Assembly (NCBI GenBank): GCA_963845085.1
Contig: CAWJQI010000005.1
Span: forward strand, 288,001 to 352,000
Reading direction: 5' to 3'
DNA length: 64,000 bases
From: Candidatus Fermentibacterota bacterium
GTDB lineage: Bacteria; Fermentibacterota; Fermentibacteria; Fermentibacterales; JCC-6
Part shown: piece after piece, positions 1 to 10,558 of the stretch
Layout of the letters: every line of letters starts with the position of its first letter
How positions within the stretch are numbered: position 1 is the first letter of the stretch
Made by a program: the position numbers and the translations under genes
The notes under the pieces: model-generated
The model's input: only the letters and a program-made list of their open reading frames with translations
Database searches by the model: none
What the model was told of the DNA's origin: nothing

Positions 1-44
1 GCGGCGACCGCAGCGATTACAAGAATTGAAAATGCCACCCTCAT
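1..44 (-). CDS. N-terminus of a secreted protein running off the window (MRVAFSILVIAAVAA...)
   Basis: ATG at 44-42 with GGAGG RBS upstream; signal-peptide-like sequence; partial. Confidence 0.55.
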   Translation of the reverse strand, partial: MRVAFSILVIAAVA

Positions 45-60
45 GGAATTGCCTCCCTGT

Positions 61-190
61 GTTTAGCAACGTTTGTTGCGTTGCTGAACACATATGAAAG
101 AGCGCCAGCGTTGTCAACAACCCAGACAAAAGGTTCTGTTACCGCTGTCTTTACATTCCACCACTTCTGAAGTATCGTTGCTGGCAACGA
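61..190. promoter_or_regulatory. Divergent promoter with GCAACG/CGTTGC inverted-repeat operators and a sigma70-like promoter
   Basis: GTTTAGCAACG-N7-CGTTGCTGAAC at 61-89; TCGTTGC-tg-GCAACGA at 175-190 overlapping the -10 of TTTACA-N17-TATCGT (150-178). Confidence 0.55.
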
Positions 191-200
191 AAGGAATTGC

Positions 201-977
201 ATGCAGCGGGAGAATCACTCCGAAAACCTTCCGGAATGCTTCACCTTCCTGCGGGAAGAGCTGTCAAAGGCCGACAGAGCCACCGGTTCCAGAAGAAAAC
301 TGGCAGCGGCCCTCGGTGTTTCAACGCACACCCTCCAGAGGCTGCTGACCGGCACAGACCTTCCCGACCTCGCAAGGGAAAGATCGTCCTATGTCCGGAG
401 CTCATGGACCAGAACCCTGACCAGGATGGCACTCGGGCTGGGGATAGACCCGGAAAGGCTCCTCAGGTCCGCCTGCATCGAGCCCGATGCACACAGCCTT
501 TCACTTGTGAACTCCGAAAAGGCAAAGTTCGGCATGCGGTCCCGAAAGCAGAGCGAGGCAGGAAGCATGCCCGACCTGGCGGGCTTCATAATGGCCCTCG
601 CAGGCTCCTGGCCGGGCGCAGGAAGCGCCCCTGGAAGCGAGGCCCTGCAGAGGCTTCAGGAAGCGATTGCGCAGTTCCTCGTTGCAACCGGATCGACTCC
701 TCCCGGGCTTGCCGACGGAAGCGATCTCTCCGGTGGAAGCTTCTGCCGGTCGTGCATGGCGTCGCTTACCGATACCGAGAACCGCGGCGCATCGGATCAC
801 TTCTGCAGATGGTGTTCCGACGACGACGGCAACCTTCGGTCAGCCGAAGAGGTGCACGGCATACTCACGAAATGGTTCATGCAATGGCAGAAGGGAATTA
901 CGGGAAGCCAGGCGGCCGAGAGGGCAAGACACTACATGCTTGCAATGCCCGCATGGACCCTAAACTCCGGGCTCTGA
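201..977 (+). CDS. N-terminal HTH regulator with C-terminal putative zinc-ribbon (Zn_ribbon_2-like) domain
   Basis: SRRKLAAALGVSTHTLQRLL HTH; FCRSCM...FCRWC...MPAW C-terminal motif. Confidence 0.65.
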   Translation: MQRENHSENLPECFTFLREELSKADRATGSRRKLAAALGVSTHTLQRLLTGTDLPDLARERSSYVRSSWTRTLTRMALGLGIDPERLLRSACIEPDAHSLSLVNSEKAKFGMRSRKQSEAGSMPDLAGFIMALAGSWPGAGSAPGSEALQRLQEAIAQFLVATGSTPPGLADGSDLSGGSFCRSCMASLTDTENRGASDHFCRWCSDDDGNLRSAEEVHGILTKWFMQWQKGITGSQAAERARHYMLAMPAWTLNSGL

Positions 978-1019
978 CCGCCCCGGGGCATTCCTTCAAC
1001 TCACCACTTATGCCGTCAT

Positions 1020-1562
1020 CTATTCGGTGATCAGGGTGATCACTGGAAGGTTCTCGGATGCCGTGCCGCGCGTCGCGCGAAGGTCCATCGAGGAGAGGTA
1101 TCTCCGCCCCGGTGCGGTCCAGCCGTACACGTAAAGGTAACCCGATACCGACCCGAAGCGAAGATCAAGAAGAAGGTCGCCACCCTCGTACTCCCACGGT
1201 GTGTCGAAGGTGAAGACCACCATGCCGTTCTCGTCGGCTTCTACCTCAAGGACGCTGCTCGTCAGAACCTGGGCCGATGACGTCATGTTCTCTTCGAAGT
1301 CGGGACCGATCTCGCTCCCGCCGCTCGACCCGATCCGAACGACGGCATTTCCGATCACCGCTGACTGGTCGCCCGAGGGCGCTCTGTGAAAGGCGAACCC
1401 GGAAATGGTCACGGGTCCGGGCATTTCTTCTTCAGGCACCGCCAACTGGCAGTGAATTGTCGAAGAGCCTCAACCGCCGCAGAGAGGCTCTCCCAGGGGA
1501 AAACCGTTTTCCCCGATCGTTATGGTGCCGGCCATCAGGGCCAGGGTGATAAGCTCGTGCAT
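1020..1562 (-). CDS. Putative secreted selenoprotein (CxxU motif), 180 aa, in-frame UGA at codon 31
   Basis: GGAGG-N4-ATG at 1562; MHELITLALMAGTITIGENGFPLGEPLCGG(TGA)GSSTIHCQL continues in frame into ORF 1020..1445; hairpin just 3' of the UGA. Confidence 0.7.
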
Positions 1563-1628
1563 TGTTCCTCCAGGGTGATTGGTTCAAGGCGTTGGAAAGT
1601 ATACAACTCCCGGTACTTCATCATTCCA

Positions 1629-3050
1629 TCATCCCCTGCCTGCGGGCTCCGCCACGGGCACAGCCACGCACGGCTGTTCCTCTGGCCTCTCCACCAGAAC
1701 CATGGTCCTCCACGGCCCCTTTCTGTATCTGATGAAGTATCCCGCGGCAAGCAGCGCAACGTAGAGGATCGTGAAGAGCCACAGGGAAACAACGGTCACT
1801 CCGGGGCGCCGGTAGATCAGGAAGATGCCAGGGACCCAGAACAGCCACCCCAGACACGAAGCGAGAATCATCACGAACCGTGTGTCACCGGACCCGCGAA
1901 GGGCGCCTCCGAGCATCAGGCTGACTGCGTCGAAGCCACCCCATAGGCAGAGTATGGCAAGCAGCGTGGTGCCCGTCGCCAGGAGCTGGTCGAAAGGCAC
2001 ATCAGACTCGGGGCTTCTGAAGATCGACATGTACATTCCAGGAAGAAGCAGGAAAGTTGACGCTATGGCGGCAAAATACAGAAGGGCCACGACAAGCGTT
2101 CTTCGCGTGACCCGTGCAGCCATCTCGTGGTTCCTCGCGCCCTGGTAGCGGCCGACGAGGATGGTCGTGGTGATGCCGAAACCCAGAAGGGGGTGAAAGG
2201 CCAGGTTGTTGACCCCGAACGCGATGTTGCTGGCCGTGAACTCAACGGGCGACATCTTCCCGGTGAGGAAGACGAAGACGGAGAAGCTGGCTACGTCCAT
2301 AAATACACTGACGGCCGACGGAAGGCCGTATCTGAGGGTCTTCCCCGCCTGGGCCCTGTCAAGTCGAAAGTGGCTTCGTATGGGATACTCCCGGGATATC
2401 TTTCCCCGAAGGGAAAGCGAAATAAGCACAGCGGCGGGAACGAACGAACTTATGGCTGTGGCGAGCCCGGCGCCCTCGATTCCCATCTCGGGAAAACCGA
2501 GCCTGCCGAAAATGAACAACCAGTCCAGAAGGATGTTCAGCGCTGCGCCCGCAATCCCCGCCGCCATGGTTACCGTGGTTCTTCCAAGGCCGCTCCAGAG
2601 GGATGCAGCTCCGGCGTTCAGAGTGGATCCCACCCCGGCAACCATCATCCAGCGGAAATACGCCGTCTCGAGGGAGAGAACCCGTGGAGTGTGGCCTCCC
2701 AGCCGCAGGATCAATTCCCCGGGGATGACCAGGGCCAGAAGCAGCGGCGCTGAGAGAAGGGCAAGCATGACGCCCTGTGCGTACGAGACCGCCACACCGC
2801 GGTCGTTCCCTGCCCCGTGGTTCTGGCTGACGAATGTTGATGCGTAGCCCGCCGCCCCCTGAAAGAGGCAGATCAGGGTGAAGGCGAGAATGCCTGCCGG
2901 AAGCGCAGCCTGCAGTTCCCACACGCTGTGTCTCGCAAGGAACATCCGGTCGCAGAACATCATCGTTGTCTGGGCCGCCATGCCGGTGATGACGGGCAGC
3001 GCTACTCCCAGTATCTCCCGGTAACTCCCCGGGCTCTGCAGTTTGCTCAT
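1629..3050 (-). CDS. MATE family efflux transporter
   Basis: About 12 TM segments; DRMFLAR, NILLDWLFIFG...MGIEGAGLAT and GALRGSGDTR motifs. Confidence 0.92.
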   Translation of the reverse strand: MSKLQSPGSYREILGVALPVITGMAAQTTMMFCDRMFLARHSVWELQAALPAGILAFTLICLFQGAAGYASTFVSQNHGAGNDRGVAVSYAQGVMLALLSAPLLLALVIPGELILRLGGHTPRVLSLETAYFRWMMVAGVGSTLNAGAASLWSGLGRTTVTMAAGIAGAALNILLDWLFIFGRLGFPEMGIEGAGLATAISSFVPAAVLISLSLRGKISREYPIRSHFRLDRAQAGKTLRYGLPSAVSVFMDVASFSVFVFLTGKMSPVEFTASNIAFGVNNLAFHPLLGFGITTTILVGRYQGARNHEMAARVTRRTLVVALLYFAAIASTFLLLPGMYMSIFRSPESDVPFDQLLATGTTLLAILCLWGGFDAVSLMLGGALRGSGDTRFVMILASCLGWLFWVPGIFLIYRRPGVTVVSLWLFTILYVALLAAGYFIRYRKGPWRTMVLVERPEEQPCVAVPVAEPAGRG

Positions 3051-3805
3051 TGCATCGGCACCCGAAGGATGCTGCCGGCGCCGTCGTCAGTCACAAGAAG
3101 GTCGCCGTCGGGCAGGAAGATGATGTCCTCTATCGATTCGAAGCCGGACGCGATGGTGGTTCTCTCACCGCCGGGGTCGACCGCCACGACCGACCCGAGC
3201 TCTTCGCACGCAACGAGCAGCAGGGTGCCATCGGGCGAGAAACGAAGCCCCTCGGCCGATGGGATGCCCCCCGAATACGGCACCCAGGCACCGGTTCCGA
3301 CACTCACCGCAACCACGCTCGAAAACAGGCCTGTAAGCGGCATTTCATTGCATGCAAACAAAAGGTCATCCGATTCGGCCGTAAGCCCGGAGAGCATGAA
3401 TCCCCTGGGAAGCGTGACGATGGAATCGGGCCCTTCCGGAGTCCACCTGCAGATGCCCGACGGCCCGCCTGTCAGGGTCCATGTGTAGTAGATCTCCCCG
3501 TCCGGTGTCACCGCAACGCCCTCGGGGTTGGGTATCCCCCTCTCGAGAACTCCGAGCACGGAAGAGACGAGCCTGCCGTGATGGATGTCTTCGACTGCGA
3601 CAACCCCGAGTTCGGGGTGCCATGCGACCCCTTCGGGACTTTCGAGACCGAGCATTGCAATGAATACAACGCCCTGCGGGTTTATGCCCTTCACTGTCCC
3701 GGTTGCTTCCTCAACCACGAACACCGTGCCGTCGGAAGCGAGAGCAAGGCCGTCCGGGCTCGACAGCCCTCCGAGGAACAGGCTGAAGGCAACCGCCGTT
3801 TCCAT
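3047..3805 (-). CDS. NHL/SMP-30-type beta-propeller protein
   Basis: Repeated PDGLAL/PEGVAW/PEGVAV/AEGLRF blades; start METAVAF overlaps the upstream stop codon. Confidence 0.75.
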   Translation of the reverse strand: METAVAFSLFLGGLSSPDGLALASDGTVFVVEEATGTVKGINPQGVVFIAMLGLESPEGVAWHPELGVVAVEDIHHGRLVSSVLGVLERGIPNPEGVAVTPDGEIYYTWTLTGGPSGICRWTPEGPDSIVTLPRGFMLSGLTAESDDLLFACNEMPLTGLFSSVVAVSVGTGAWVPYSGGIPSAEGLRFSPDGTLLLVACEELGSVVAVDPGGERTTIASGFESIEDIIFLPDGDLLVTDDGAGSILRVPMQ

Positions 3806-4608
3806 CAGTCGGAGAGCTTTGTGACCGAGTCGGCAACCGCCTCCATGGCTTTGGCCGATGGGGACTTGCCGTAGTTGTAAACGAAGGGCTTCCCCTGGTC
3901 GCCCGATTCCACGATTGCAGGGTCGAGAGGGATTTTGCCCAGGAAGGGAACCGAGTACGCCTTCGCTGTGTCCTCGCCCCCGGTACCGCGGAATACCTCC
4001 GTGACCTTTCCGCAGGCGGGGCATGCGAATCCGCTCATGTTCTCTACAACGCCCAGCACAGGGACGCCCGTTTTGAGGCAGAAGTCCACGGATTTCCTCA
4101 CGTCGGCTGCCGCTACTTTCTGCGGAGTGGTCACGATGATCGCTCCGTCAACGTTCCCAAGGAGCTGGACCACGGAGAGGGGCTCGTCACCCGTTCCCGG
4201 AGGACAGTCCACGATAAGGAAGTCGAGTTTCCCCCACAGCACCTGCTTCACGAACTGACTGATCAGGTTCATCTTCATCGGCCCACGCCAGATCAGTGCA
4301 TCGTCACTATTCCTGAGCATGAAACCCACGCTCATGACCTTCATGCCGGCGTGTTCAACGGGAATGAACACCTCATCCTGCGTGATCACGCCTTCGAGCC
4401 CCAGTCCGAGCATGATCGGAACGCTCGGGCCATGTATGTCAACGTCGAGCAGACCGACGCTCCTGCCCTGCATGGCAAGGGAAACCGCCAGATTGACGGC
4501 AATGGTGCTTTTCCCGACTCCGCCCTTTCCGGAAAGTACAAGCACCTTCCGGCCGACGGCATCGGTTCCCGGTGCTGCGACGGTGGATTCCGGCGTGTCT
4601 TTGCTCAT
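3805..4608 (-). CDS. mrp: Mrp/ApbC/NBP35 Fe-S cluster carrier ATPase
   Basis: SGKGGVGKS, DVDIHGPS, WRGP, DCPPGTGD and ENMS-CPAC motifs. Confidence 0.93.
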   Translation of the reverse strand: MSKDTPESTVAAPGTDAVGRKVLVLSGKGGVGKSTIAVNLAVSLAMQGRSVGLLDVDIHGPSVPIMLGLGLEGVITQDEVFIPVEHAGMKVMSVGFMLRNSDDALIWRGPMKMNLISQFVKQVLWGKLDFLIVDCPPGTGDEPLSVVQLLGNVDGAIIVTTPQKVAAADVRKSVDFCLKTGVPVLGVVENMSGFACPACGKVTEVFRGTGGEDTAKAYSVPFLGKIPLDPAIVESGDQGKPFVYNYGKSPSAKAMEAVADSVTKLSD

Positions 4609-4714
4609 GTGGATCTCCGTTTTCTTCTGTTGCATGCCGTGGAAGCCCGGCCGGCTGACCGGAGTAATATACTGCCGTGCCGCGGCACTTCGCTCAAAAG
4701 CGTATGTTTGAACC

Positions 4715-6112
4715 ATGAAGCACAAACGCAGCGAACTCAGGGAAACCTTCAGGATCTCGATCACGGAGGGTGTCTTCTCGCAGGTTTACGGCAGTCTTTC
4801 CGGGCCGGGTTCCGCATTCCTCACCAGGCTTCTTGTGTTCCTCGGCGCCGGCCCGCTGCATTTCAGCCTGATTTCCGCCATCGGGCAGGTTTCAATGCTT
4901 TTCCAGCCCCTCGGCATTCTGGCGGGACGGGGCAGCATCAGGAGAAAGGGACGTGTGATCGGCTGGGCTGCTGCCGGAAGGGCGCTCACTCCCCTTCTTG
5001 GGCTTGCCCCCCTATTGCTGCCGCGATCCCTTGCGCTTCCCGCGGTACTCGTGATCTTCTTCATTATCACATCCATCCTCGCAGTCTCGACGAACATGTG
5101 GATGGGGTGGATCGCCCACATGGTGCCGAAGAAGATCAGAGGCAGGTTCTTCGCCAAAAGGAACGCCGTCCTCATGACCTTCGGGCTGATAGTCAGCTTT
5201 GCTTTCGGCATGTGGCTGGATGCTTACGGCACCCCGCCGACCGGCGCCGGGGCGGTGGTGGCAAGGGTGTTCAACACGGCCCCCGACGGCCTGCCGCGAG
5301 CCCTTTTCTTCACGTTCACAACAGCCGGATTACTGGGTATCGCAGGCCTCGCCGTGCTGAAGAGACAGCCCGAGCGGGCGGAGGCCAAATCAGCCGAAAC
5401 ACTTCGAACAACCGTCCTTGAACCGCTCCGAAACCCCAACTTCCGCCGGCTGTGCTTTTTTGGAGCGTGGTGGATGATGGCGGTTGGGGTTGGCGCACCC
5501 TTCTGGCAGCCCTTCATGATCCAGATACTGGGCATGGGGCTCGTAGAAATGCTTCTTTATGGCGCCGTCAGCACGGCGGGTGCCGTTATCACCCTGTCCT
5601 ACTGGGGGCGGCTGATCGACAGGTACGGCAACAAGACGGCAATGAAGCTCGCAATAGTGGCGGGCACGTTCATCCCTCTCGTGTGGCTCTTCGTCACCAG
5701 GGAAACCAGGTGGCTGCTCGTATTCGAAGCGGCCGCATCGGGCAGCATGTGGGGCTGCGTCGGGGTTGTTACGGCAAACCTCGTGCTCGCGGTCGCCCCG
5801 CGCGGCAGGGAGCAGGAATACTCAGGGCTTTACAGCGCCGTGTGCGGCCTTGCGATGATTGTAACGATGCTTGCTTCCGGCATCTTCATGCCCGCGCCCC
5901 TCAGAATCATGGGTCTTTCGCTGCACCCCATGCAGGTGCTCTTTCTTGCCACCGCGGTGGCAAGGCTTTCAGCCGAGATTCCCCTGGCATTCGTCGAGGA
6001 GCCCGATTCGATAGGTGTTTCCGTGGTGCTGCGCCGACTGCTGTTCTGGAACAAGGTGCGCTTCCCGATGCCCAGGGTGTTCTTCAGATCAGGCAGGGGG
6101 CGTCGCCGCTGA
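4715..6112 (+). CDS. MFS transporter
   Basis: Multi-TM; WIAHMVPKKIRGRFFAKR and WGRLIDRYGNK MFS loops. Confidence 0.85.
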   Translation: MKHKRSELRETFRISITEGVFSQVYGSLSGPGSAFLTRLLVFLGAGPLHFSLISAIGQVSMLFQPLGILAGRGSIRRKGRVIGWAAAGRALTPLLGLAPLLLPRSLALPAVLVIFFIITSILAVSTNMWMGWIAHMVPKKIRGRFFAKRNAVLMTFGLIVSFAFGMWLDAYGTPPTGAGAVVARVFNTAPDGLPRALFFTFTTAGLLGIAGLAVLKRQPERAEAKSAETLRTTVLEPLRNPNFRRLCFFGAWWMMAVGVGAPFWQPFMIQILGMGLVEMLLYGAVSTAGAVITLSYWGRLIDRYGNKTAMKLAIVAGTFIPLVWLFVTRETRWLLVFEAAASGSMWGCVGVVTANLVLAVAPRGREQEYSGLYSAVCGLAMIVTMLASGIFMPAPLRIMGLSLHPMQVLFLATAVARLSAEIPLAFVEEPDSIGVSVVLRRLLFWNKVRFPMPRVFFRSGRGRRR

Positions 6113-7701: not shown

Positions 7702-7853
7702 GCGGGCATTCCTCTCCGTTGGATCAAGGGGGAAGAATACCGAAGTATCCGGATCGAAGGCAATACCCGGCACCGCAACAGGGAACAAATGGGCCTGCAG
7801 GTTGTATACTCCTTTGTTTGCAACCATTTACGACTTCCCCGAAGGGAGCCTTG

Positions 7854-8426
7854 ATGAAGCATTGCCTTCATGCAACGACAGCTTTTGCCCTTTTATCACT
7901 TCTTCTTGCCGGGTGCATGAGCTCTTCTCAACTGGCTGGTCTCGGCATGCCGGCCAATTACGCAAAAAGCCCTGTTTTCGAGACCAGAACCCTGTGGCGC
8001 ACGGCCGTGCTTCCGCCGACAAGCAGCCTTCCCGGGCTGTCACAGGCCCAGGGTCTGTACGACTACGCCGGCATGGCGCTGCTGCGGACCGGCCGCTTCA
8101 CCGTGCTTGATCGGTCGGAGGTCGACCGGATACTGTCTGAACAGGAGTTCTCGTACTCGGGAATCGTTGACCAGACCACTGCCGTTCAGCTGGGCCGCCT
8201 GATGGGGGCCGAGGCCGTGATGACCATCACCGTGACAAGGGTGGCACATGACAGCTTCTGGTCCGACACACCGGAACAGAGGGACGCCGAGCTTCATGTT
8301 AAGATCATTTCCGTGGAGACCTCGGAAATCCTTTACTCGGCCGTCGGAGAAGGATCGGATTTCGAGGGCGCGGAAGGCGCCCTGCAGTCAGCTCTTGAAG
8401 TGGCCCTTATGGGCATAAACCGATAG
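7854..8426 (+). CDS. CsgG/HfaB-like lipoprotein
   Basis: LLAGC lipobox; TGRFTVLDRSEVDRILSEQ...AVQLGRLMGAEAV. Confidence 0.8.
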   Translation: MKHCLHATTAFALLSLLLAGCMSSSQLAGLGMPANYAKSPVFETRTLWRTAVLPPTSSLPGLSQAQGLYDYAGMALLRTGRFTVLDRSEVDRILSEQEFSYSGIVDQTTAVQLGRLMGAEAVMTITVTRVAHDSFWSDTPEQRDAELHVKIISVETSEILYSAVGEGSDFEGAEGALQSALEVALMGINR

Positions 8427-8435
8427 GGGTCTCAG

Positions 8436-9389
8436 ATGAAGTCGTACGTTGCCGCAACATCACTGGCGCTCCTTGTACCGGCCTGTGGCACAACCGTTGC
8501 CAGCCCTTCACTGAGCTCTGCTGCAGCCGAAACCCCCCCGTCCATGACAGCCCCGGTCCTCGAGGATATCATCTTTGCAGGCCCACCTCCCGTCGCGACC
8601 GTTCCCGGGGAGGTTGTTGAAACACGTGCAACAGGAGCGGTGGACTGGTCCGGCAACTCGGTCAGGGCCACCGGCACCGGCGTGGTCGACCCCGGCAACC
8701 CGAACACGGCGCAGGCGCGGCTCATGGCGGAGAGGGCCGCTGTCGTAGTCGCCCAGCGAAACCTTCTTGAGCTCGCAGAAGGCGTCAGGGTCGATTCGGA
8801 GACACGGGTAGAGAACTTCATGACCGATTACGACGTAGTCATGACAACCGTGCACGGGTTCGTGAGGAACGCAAGGCAGGTCGGGCCAGCGAGGTACGAC
8901 TCGGGGACGGGAACGGTCGAGGTCGAGCTTGAGATGCGTATTTACGGCGCAGAGGGACTTTCCGGCGCCATCAGCAATGCACTTGCGACCCCGCAGCTTT
9001 CTCCCGGAACCGTGTCGCCCGAAGTCAGGAGCTTCTTGGAGCAGTACTCCGGCCTTGTCATCGACGGTGCCCGAACCGGCCTCACGCCGTCGATGTTCCC
9101 CAGAATATTCGACGAGCAGGGCAACCTCCTGCTCGACACTAGCCAGTACGCATCCCTGCTCGGAACCGCCGAAGGCGCAGGCCTTCAATTCATCTCCGAC
9201 CTCGAGGGACTGCTCGGACAGCCCGGTCTTTCCGGTTCCCCGCTCGTGCTGAGGGCTGTTCAGGCCGCCGGAGCCTTCGGGAGCGACATCATTGTTTCGA
9301 CGGCAGGTGAAGACGGGGGAAATCTGCTAAAGCAGGCACTTCCCTATCTCCTCAGTGCCGGCAGATTTCTGTTGAGAGTGGTCCTGTGA
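8436..9389 (+). CDS. LPP20-like lipoprotein
   Basis: LVPAC lipobox; VDWSGNSVRATGTG...ARLMAERAAVVVAQRNLLE. Confidence 0.65.
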   Translation: MKSYVAATSLALLVPACGTTVASPSLSSAAAETPPSMTAPVLEDIIFAGPPPVATVPGEVVETRATGAVDWSGNSVRATGTGVVDPGNPNTAQARLMAERAAVVVAQRNLLELAEGVRVDSETRVENFMTDYDVVMTTVHGFVRNARQVGPARYDSGTGTVEVELEMRIYGAEGLSGAISNALATPQLSPGTVSPEVRSFLEQYSGLVIDGARTGLTPSMFPRIFDEQGNLLLDTSQYASLLGTAEGAGLQFISDLEGLLGQPGLSGSPLVLRAVQAAGAFGSDIIVSTAGEDGGNLLKQALPYLLSAGRFLLRVVL

Positions 9390-10558
9390 GCCGGGCGTTT
9401 ACGCTGGGGTGCATTGTTGCGCTCTGCGTCTCGTCAGGTTGCGGCCAGTCTGCCCTTGTACGGAACACACCGCCCGTCCAGCCGGTCTCCGAGCCCCCGG
9501 CGGGGGGAACCGAAGTTCTCGTGGAGGGGGTTTCATCCTTTACGGGAAGCTGGGACTCCGCCAGAGACCAGGCGCTCGGCGATGCCCTCAGAAAAGCTGT
9601 TGAACAGGGAGTAGGGGTCTTCATTGACGCCGGAAGCGTCGTCGAGAACTTCCAGCTAATCTCCGACCGCATCTACAGCCGCGCCGCCGGTTTCGTTTCA
9701 AGCTACAGGATAATCGCCGAGGAACGCACCGACGAGCTTTACAGGGTGGTCGTGCGTGCTGTGGTGAACACCGACGGCATCATGGAGGATCTTGCAGCGA
9801 CAGGCATCCTGGTGGCCGGGCAGGGACGACCGCGGGTAATGGTAGTCGTGCGCGAGGTCAGGGACTTCACCGCAGCCTCACTCGGGGATGCCGCAGCCAC
9901 GGGTTCGATGATCGAAACACTGATCATGGAAAGCTTCAGGCGCAGGGGTTTCCCCGTGGTCGACGCGGCAGCGGCTGCAGCTGTTCTCGAGCGCGACCAG
10001 CTGCTTCTGATCCTCGGGGGTGACGAACAAACCGCTGCATTGATCGGGCTCCAGGCCGGGGCCGAGATAATCGTATCCGGCACGGCGCTGCACGATGTTG
10101 AAACAAGGACGATAGCAGGCTCCCCCAGGGAGATTCACGTCTACAGGATGAACTGCCGGGCCGTCAACACGCGCACGGCAGCCGTTCTCGGCGCTTCCGC
10201 CACTTCGACCGAGGTTCCCTTCAGCGAAGACCAGGCACGTTCACAGGCTTCGTCCAAAACGGCTGATCAACTGATCGCGGCGATACTCGAAGGCTGGACC
10301 GTGAACGAGAACTCCACGGTCATTGTCGCAACGAACGCCGACTTTGACAAGCTTGCCGCGCTCAGGTCCCGGATCCGCACCGAAATACGGGGTGTCAGCG
10401 AGGTTCTGACCCGCGATTTCACCGGTTCAAGGGCAACCATCGAGGTTATTTCCGAGATACCGTCGCAGGAGGTGCTGGAACGCCTGGCCGAACTTGGCGG
10501 TGGCTTCTCGATAACGGGCGCTGCGGGCAACCGTGTTGAGATAAGGTTTTCGGACTGA
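9386..10558 (+). CDS. Lipoprotein with FlgT N-terminal-like domain
   Basis: VSSGC lipobox; ARDQALGDALRKAVEQGVGVFI; RPRVMVV central domain. Confidence 0.7.
   Translation: MSRAFTLGCIVALCVSSGCGQSALVRNTPPVQPVSEPPAGGTEVLVEGVSSFTGSWDSARDQALGDALRKAVEQGVGVFIDAGSVVENFQLISDRIYSRAAGFVSSYRIIAEERTDELYRVVVRAVVNTDGIMEDLAATGILVAGQGRPRVMVVVREVRDFTAASLGDAAATGSMIETLIMESFRRRGFPVVDAAAAAAVLERDQLLLILGGDEQTAALIGLQAGAEIIVSGTALHDVETRTIAGSPREIHVYRMNCRAVNTRTAAVLGASATSTEVPFSEDQARSQASSKTADQLIAAILEGWTVNENSTVIVATNADFDKLAALRSRIRTEIRGVSEVLTRDFTGSRATIEVISEIPSQEVLERLAELGGGFSITGAAGNRVEIRFSD

Follow-up and report, generated by a model that had tools for sequence, protein, structure and literature searches.

A candidate exported selenoprotein family with a CxxU motif on a predicted jelly-roll fold in Fermentibacterota

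Results

The window, a 64,000-nucleotide stretch of a 2.45-Mb genome that is 88% complete, contains a minus-strand gene of 180 codons plus a TAG stop codon (1020..1562, TAG at 1022-1020), in which codon 31 is a TGA. The frame starts at an ATG at 1562, which follows the Shine-Dalgarno sequence GGAGG (1567..1571, minus strand) and the spacer AACA; the aligned ATG is also the start in same-genus orthologs, where ribosome-binding site matches of 4-6 nt are found. From this ATG, the frame encodes MHELITLALMAGTITIGENGFPLGEPLCGG, passes through the TGA (1472-1470) and runs for 149 further codons to the TAG. Reading the TGA as selenocysteine (U) yields a 180-residue protein with the motif C28-G-G-U31. 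The residues P-L-C-G-G precede the TGA (U31; 1470..1472, minus strand), and Cys28 (1479..1481, minus strand) is a cysteine in 98% of the 127 aligned family members. A preliminary description of this DNA had placed GGAGG-N4-ATG, PLCGG-TGA and the continuation of the frame into a 141-residue ORF correctly. That ORF (1020..1445, minus strand, in the ORF list) is what gene callers report; its TTG start at 1445 is false and lies inside the SECIS element. All 13 database matches to the window protein are C-terminal pieces of 104-148 residues.

The extent of the full gene, with Sec at codon 31, is supported by conservation on both sides of the TGA and by Sec/Cys exchange in the family. Compared with four gap-free orthologs, codons 1-30 differ at 32 first, 14 second and 61 third codon positions, with third positions prevailing, and codons 32-180 follow a like pattern (153/134/352). 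Judged from these comparisons, conservation of codons 1-30 exceeds chance, and the similarity up- and downstream of the TGA had been anticipated in the preliminary description. Across the TGA, contigs of two other studies show no differing letter, at a depth of only 2.5-3.2; together with the same TGA in related genomes, they speak against an assembly error.

A MATE transporter gene (1629..3050, minus strand) lies 66 nt upstream of the ATG and is itself preceded by an NHL-repeat gene (3047-~3910) and a Mrp/NUBPL ATPase gene (3805-4764). The order Mrp/NUBPL ATPase, NHL-repeat, MATE and window gene recurs in all six same-genus genomes that have an ortholog. Within a sister genus, the ortholog is found within about 2 kb of the MATE gene on the same strand in 10 genomes, and a GH18 gene stands between the two in seven of eight loci. 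Two further genera contributed 15 MATE orthologs, with none of these neighbours found within 1.5 kb. The proposal that the gene closes a Mrp-NHL-MATE operon comes down to a gene order that is conserved in just two genera, and a functional operon link beyond these was not supported. As far as gene order tells, the association is synteny only; co-transcription with the MATE gene is plausible, given the 66-nt gap. Scans that performed at chance level found neither a sigma-70 promoter-like site in 800-5000 nor a terminator-like site between the MATE and window genes. On the plus strand, a gene at 201-977, whose 258-residue HTH product matches a zinc ribbon weakly, and the selenoprotein gene are convergent with 42 nt between them; it was not found in the ortholog neighbourhoods. 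Farther along the window (7719-10558, plus strand), genes for a CsgG/LpoB-like lipoprotein, an unmatched 317-residue lipoprotein-like ORF and a FlgT_N protein stand in a row.

Searches with tblastn and phmmer identified seven paralogs of the window gene in the genome, giving eight copies in all. The preliminary description did not note this multiplicity, nor that the window copy is an atypical one without the family's tail. Six of the seven have a TGA at the aligned codon, which makes seven Sec copies with the window gene included. The remaining paralog reads G-C-C (G000 C5:6721-7332, minus strand) and has neither the TGA nor the SECIS stem. As a single query, the window protein has a match in 35 of 41 related genomes, and a 34-sequence profile gave 333 matches in 68 of 70 phylum genomes (Fermentibacterota by named homologs), with 1-10 per genome. 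We counted motifs in 130 unique members drawn from the listed best matches, which leaves 203 of the 333 profile matches outside the counted set. The Sec site reads CxxU in 107 of them, CxxC in 17, SxxU in one (G000 C5:144976-145620), GxxU in one (L153), S-C-U in two and C-C in one, and is cut off by a contig end in one; because TGA-free members were deliberately taken in, the Cys share is no population estimate. The two members with adjacent Cys-Sec (S-C-U), L109 (G021:C31) and L108 (G010:C103), keep the SECIS. Neither Trp, Arg nor Gly ever occupies the Sec position among the 130 members, as expected beforehand for homologs carrying TGA or Cys at position 31.

The 109 Sec members that align at the Sec column have a median identity of 34%; family members are kin, and counts of them overstate independence. 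CxxC paralogs share genomes with CxxU paralogs. The tree places Cys forms at three or more separate points, with 13 of the 17 Cys genes in one clade; it is a quick build with SH-aLRT support only and a midpoint root, and it gives no direction of Sec/Cys change. A DNA pattern combining SECIS and motif, which fits only this family's SECIS type, returned 122 loci from GTDB genomes (48 of 64 parts). Family members account for 85, whose titles in every case name Fermentibacterota taxa or an 'uncultured bacterium'; the other 37 loci are without a family match. Sec-type members outside the phylum were found neither in these 48 of 64 parts nor in six out-of-phylum genomes. A match on a viral contig was rejected as a chance match, and a protein-pattern scan of genome contigs for the family gave no match.

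The upper SECIS stem-loop, CACTGCC-AGTT-GGCGGTG (1437..1454, minus strand), was identified by folding and family comparison. Its loop (1447-1444) starts 22 nt past the UGA and has G as its second base, at 1446, all as first described. A bacterial SECIS has a loop of 3-9 nt with G among the first two bases, a distance of 16-37 nt from the UGA, a stem of 4-16 bp and a minimum free energy of at most -7.5 (section 5 of PMC13188914). With its 4-nt loop AGUU, 7-bp stem, 22-nt spacing and -17.7 kcal/mol for 45 nt, the window hairpin falls within these bounds for loop, spacing, stem and energy. Fold z-scores range from -2.1 to -3.8 in four windows. The lower stem TCTTC/GAAGA that had also been proposed is present in the minimum-energy fold of this copy but is not kept among seven same-genus orthologs; we rejected it as a conserved element, as only the upper stem-loop is conserved there.

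Across the family, the hairpin tracks the UGA. Counting a hairpin where a stem of at least 5 bp closes a loop of 4 nt whose second base is G, we found it in 109 of 111 Sec genes versus none of 17 Cys genes; these 128 members leave out the C-C paralog and one unscorable row. In one of the two misses the stem forms with a shifted loop. Resampling of synonymous codons produced a mean of 5.3 hairpins (sd 2.2, maximum 13 in 2000) against the 109 observed; the protein motif does not by itself account for the hairpin. Distances from the UGA to the loop are 19 nt in 89 genes and 22 nt in 22, and the loop reads AGGT in 87, AGTT in 12, AGGC in eight and otherwise in four. Stem pair 2 covaries, being C-G in 88 genes and T-A in 22. 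For the Arg codon ahead of the stem, 80 Sec genes use CGC and the Cys genes mostly AGA or AGG. These family-wide features, too, lie within the bacterial SECIS bounds of PMC13188914.

The genome encodes SelA, SelB and SelD, all above cut-off, together with tRNA-Sec (selC), so that the machinery called for in the preliminary description is at hand; selA and selB lie side by side. The SelD gene has an in-frame TGA of its own, and the hairpin that comes after it shares the CAGGT core. selA was detected in 67 of 70 phylum genomes, including all 46 of high quality. A strict genome-wide hairpin scan recovered six of the seven Sec paralogs; it missed SelD and therefore does not enumerate the selenoproteome. 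A TGA directly after the tail ends 15 of 48 ORFs with a T9SS-like tail, and outside selenoprotein genes, TGA is an ordinary stop in this genome.

These results bear on other explanations for the TGA, namely a genuine stop, a lesion in a pseudogene, a fault of assembly or a genome-wide reassignment to Trp or Gly. In their favour, databases annotate only the piece downstream of the TGA, but the same TGA stands in more than 100 diverged genes, exchanges only with Cys, is accompanied by the hairpin and recurs in the contigs of other studies. Reassignment is countered by the TGA-terminated ORFs mentioned above and by tRNA-Sec being the sole tRNA with a UCA anticodon found in the genome. We consider this set of explanations extremely improbable. 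From the sequence comparisons, the UGA is almost certainly decoded as selenocysteine via SelB, and the original proposal of a selenoprotein is supported, with none of the findings that would have spoken against it having come to light.

To characterize the protein, we used an AlphaFold2 model predicted from the family alignment (pLDDT 92.9, pTM 0.87). The mature domain (1023..1526, minus strand) is predicted, from this model and fold searches, to be a jelly-roll β-sandwich that ends without the C-terminal tail of the family. The model is all-β apart from one 4-residue helix, in agreement with the earlier suggestion of a β-sandwich in place of a thioredoxin fold. A CxxU oxidoreductase of the thioredoxin fold was rejected, as the predicted model does not have the α/β fold with the motif before a helix. 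Fold searches returned nine chains at Z>=8 that cover the whole domain, the best being the N-terminal domain of the acetyl xylan esterase PbeAcXE (7tog; Z 10.7, rmsd 3.1, 147 aligned). A phage tail-tip domain (Z 10.6), the Cwp84 lectin-like domain (4ci7; Z 9.9), PHR domains (3no8, 3gbw; Z 8.9) and CBM32 (Z about 6) follow without a clear winner, at about 10% identity and rmsd values of 3-5 Å. The window protein is thus predicted to have a galactose-binding-like jelly-roll fold (CBM32/PHR-like). We know of no Cys/Sec loop in the matched domains of this type.

A profile search reached 5609 clusters at E<=0.001. Among the 150 matches listed, 114 are long proteins with the domain in repeats, several of which also carry CBM96, PKD or Big domains. 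Within the matches listed, two of 384 distant domains have CxxC in the loop, and a single Cys at position 28 is present in 14% of the 100 distant domains that align there. Because the distant domains mostly lack the Cys pair, we infer that the scaffold itself is a surface module of wide occurrence, and that the CxxU pair is a speciality of this lineage. P0040, P0041, P0045, P0053 and about 60 similar matches are lipoprotein-like proteins of ~560 residues with three copies of the jelly-roll domain; the four named ones were scanned against Pfam and have no match.

The C-terminal tail L-x-x-x-T-F-G-x-I-K-x-x-F is present in 108 of 130 members and missing in the window gene, which belongs to a tail-less clade of 15 members from two genera (SH-aLRT 98; tail missing in 15 of 15). 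A second tail-less clade of five stands separately on the tree. Family alignment reveals a third cysteine, C38 (1449..1451, minus strand), which is encoded inside the SECIS stem and is a Tyr in tail-bearing members. All 14 C38 members are tail-less (nine in the window gene's clade, five in the other), and C38 occurs in none of 106 tail-bearing members; eight tail-less members, two of them with aberrant ends, do not have it. In L048 (G033:C171) and L121 (G025:C335), the C-termini are out of frame at the tail site, possibly owing to frameshifts or assembly errors.

A tail regular expression retrieved 30 of 10056 stop-to-stop segments of the genome, of which 23 are unrelated to the family, mostly with signal-type leaders. 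The occurrence of the tail on unrelated proteins with such leaders suggests that it is a sorting signal. In the form L..[ST][WF][GA].IK..F, the tail is found at the C-terminus of 30 or more small proteins from unrelated families, most of them signal-bearing; examples are the gene starting at position 62 of the window (1-62, minus strand) and a five-gene array (C5:541581-545966). This candidate signal is distinct from the T9SS tail, and the paralogs scanned gave no NCBIfam match for it. TIGR04183-type tails have 87 matches in the genome. For Por_Secre_tail (TIGR04183), NCBIfam gave no match in the window protein, which ends at its last strand.

At its N-terminus, the window protein has a short hydrophobic leader, MHELITLALMAG (1527..1562, minus strand), which is likely a signal peptide, judged from the alignment and the model. 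The leader comprises 11-12 residues and has no basic n-region. It aligns with longer signal-type leaders of the paralogs, and pLDDT is low before strand 1. For comparison, 11 of 26 T9SS-tail-like ORFs of the genome (a rough regex set) have no K or R in residues 2-6. The extracytoplasmic location proposed in the preliminary description is plausible, given a short leader without basic residues. On balance, these features indicate that the protein is probably exported via the short leader.

Discussion

We propose the following mechanism. Its first step has an observed basis in the intact frame, the Sec machinery and the covarying hairpin, which accompanies UGA but not Cys. By established SelB/SECIS biology, SelB with Sec-tRNA would then bind the AG(G/U)U loop and insert Sec at the UGA. 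The product would be exported by the Sec translocon through its short leader; since it lacks the C-terminal tail, the window protein would probably stay in the periplasm, and tail-bearing paralogs would be sorted onward. Outside the cytoplasm, the β-sandwich would hold a target whose disulfide, polysulfide or peroxide the selenolate attacks. Cys28 would resolve the intermediate, yielding a selenenyl-sulfide for an envelope thioredoxin/CcdA route to re-reduce.

Whether the Cys28-x-x-Sec31 loop is a redox site outside the cytoplasm that works by this attack, resolution and re-reduction is evenly balanced in our judgement. We favour a redox site because the two positions hardly vary, Se and S replace each other, and Sec is kept without Cys28. 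The SxxU and GxxU members in particular imply that Sec is the reactive residue and not half of a fixed bridge. Retention of Sec with loss of Cys is the pattern of catalytic selenolates, as the motifs in Table 1 of PMC13188914 illustrate. Against a redox role, the structural matches are carbohydrate-binding or interaction domains, not redox enzymes. A possible electron source is an exported thioredoxin paired with CcdA: a lipoprotein-type thioredoxin gene adjoins a CcdA/DsbD-TM gene in the genome, beside an ArsP permease gene and not beside any family gene. This cluster (L306, G000 C5:370649-372790) consists of the ArsP permease, a small ORF, the lipoprotein-type thioredoxin (CTPC) and the CcdA/DsbD-TM gene, and holds the only DsbD-type match of the genome.

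Se-S bonds are harder to reduce than S-S bonds, and an ordinary disulfide would open in a reducing habitat. Where the habitat is reducing and rich in sulfide, the motif might form a structural Se-S bond that keeps a binding loop locked in a domain of lectin or adhesin type. Both the fold and every distant homolog resemble binding modules, the homologs as tandem repeats in large surface proteins, and neither DsbB nor VKOR was found in this genome, although at 88% completeness their absence weighs little. The phylum is described as fermentative and from oxygen-depleted, sulfur-associated habitats, which also fit a structural bond, and extracellular proteases and possible sulfur reduction are attributed to it (PMC5030696, in its available text). 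A fixed bridge is difficult to reconcile with the SxxU and GxxU members, which keep Sec without Cys28, and with the presence of CxxC and CxxU paralogs together in the same genomes. We regard it as unlikely.

Alternatively, the Cys/Sec loop might serve to scavenge, deliver or detoxify a soft metal by binding it, be it Cu, Hg, Ni, Zn or an Fe-S unit, and in the window gene's clade H37 and C38 could serve as added ligands. The CxxU, CU and CC variants resemble those of metal-handling selenoproteins in Table 1 of PMC13188914, the clade lies downstream of a Mrp/NUBPL ATPase gene in two genera, and C38 arose in two tail-less clades. Yet most members offer only two chalcogen ligands at the site, and the Mrp-NHL-MATE link is confined to the tail-less clade, with the 15 MATE orthologs elsewhere having no such neighbours. 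Metal binding therefore appears rather unlikely to us. A selenium sink or store without catalysis, or a UGA that tunes expression to selenium supply, would be in line with the many copies per genome (up to 10). Each protein contains just one Sec, however, and the exchange with Cys at the same position beside a near-invariant Cys28 implies a chemistry common to S and Se, which makes such a role very unlikely.

Returning to the redox reading, we tentatively suggest a wider, possible scenario that we hold with low confidence. Fermentibacterota may have grafted a Cys-x-x-Sec motif onto the loop of an adhesin/lectin-type jelly-roll and amplified it across the phylum as exported selenoenzymes sorted by a short, undescribed tail. 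The tail-less three-cysteine branches, which would have arisen twice, might then be periplasmic partners that relay electrons to the surface forms. If true, selenium redox chemistry would have an extracytoplasmic system built on a scaffold other than thioredoxin.

The family adds to the known selenoproteins one on a fold without an earlier tie to Sec chemistry, and offers a case of a redox-type motif arising in the loop of a widespread Cys-free binding domain. The seven Sec copies here and the 333 matches in 68 genomes suggest that selenium use in this anaerobic phylum is much larger and more extracytoplasmic than homology-based catalogues indicate. Database proteins cut at the UGA number in the hundreds. 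For SelB recognition rules, the 111 natural SECIS copies and their matched Cys controls make up a data set.

Comparison with known systems

Searches of Pfam gave no match to the window protein at E<=0.1, and NCBIfam gave none to it or to two truncated homologs at E<=1; eight paralogs scanned against NCBIfam had only two weak matches below cut-off. PDB sequence and Rfam searches were without a match. The family is also not among the 119 prokaryotic selenoprotein families in Table 1 of the 2026 catalogue (PMC13188914), whose rows with CDD or PANTHER identifiers were compared by name only. These negatives are in line with the earlier view of an undescribed family. The main texts of PMC12013277 and PMC13326102 do not mention the phylum; its genomes were among the input of the latter (BSepDB), in which the search was limited to known families. 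The string 'selen' does not occur in the available text of PMC5030696. Outside subscription literature, we found no publication linking the phylum to selenoproteins or selenocysteine, nor any linking Fermentibacter to type IX secretion.

Galactose-binding-like jelly-roll domains resemble the window protein in predicted fold, which does not in itself imply sugar binding. An unnamed repeated surface-protein domain (P-F...R-x-Q...F-x-x-N...P-F-x-Y) is homologous, with G17, P26, Q39, N92, Y125 and R154 in common. It occurs in 2-14 copies in proteins of 500-6700 residues, whereas the Fermentibacterota family consists of a stand-alone single domain with CxxU. DUF1573 is Ig-like. Its selenoprotein form (PF07610) is likewise small and β-rich and is listed in the catalogue (PMC13188914), but it has a UGC motif in place of CxxU, PF07610 does not match the window protein, and the window model resembles jelly-roll CBM and PHR domains.

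The CxxU selenoproteins in Table 1 of PMC13188914 include SELENOW-like, GrdA, AhpD/CMD-like, BtuF and a TonB-dependent receptor with FCYXU (NF049945). They share with the window family the CxxU motif and the Cys/Sec exchange, and NF049945 likewise is an envelope protein with an aromatic residue before the cysteine. The window family differs from them in its all-β jelly-roll model and in having up to 10 paralogs per genome.

In its decoding, the window gene does not differ from the bacterial genes that use an in-ORF SECIS and SelB. Escherichia coli fdhF is the prototype of the in-ORF SECIS. The in-frame UGA and the 4-nt loop, in which G or U comes after a G at position 2, are common to the window gene and these genes (section 5 of PMC13188914), as are the spacing of 19-22 nt, a complete selABCD set and the existence of Cys homologs. 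What sets the window gene apart is the encoded protein family, which is new: decoding is ordinary, and the protein family, its fold and its multiplicity are not.
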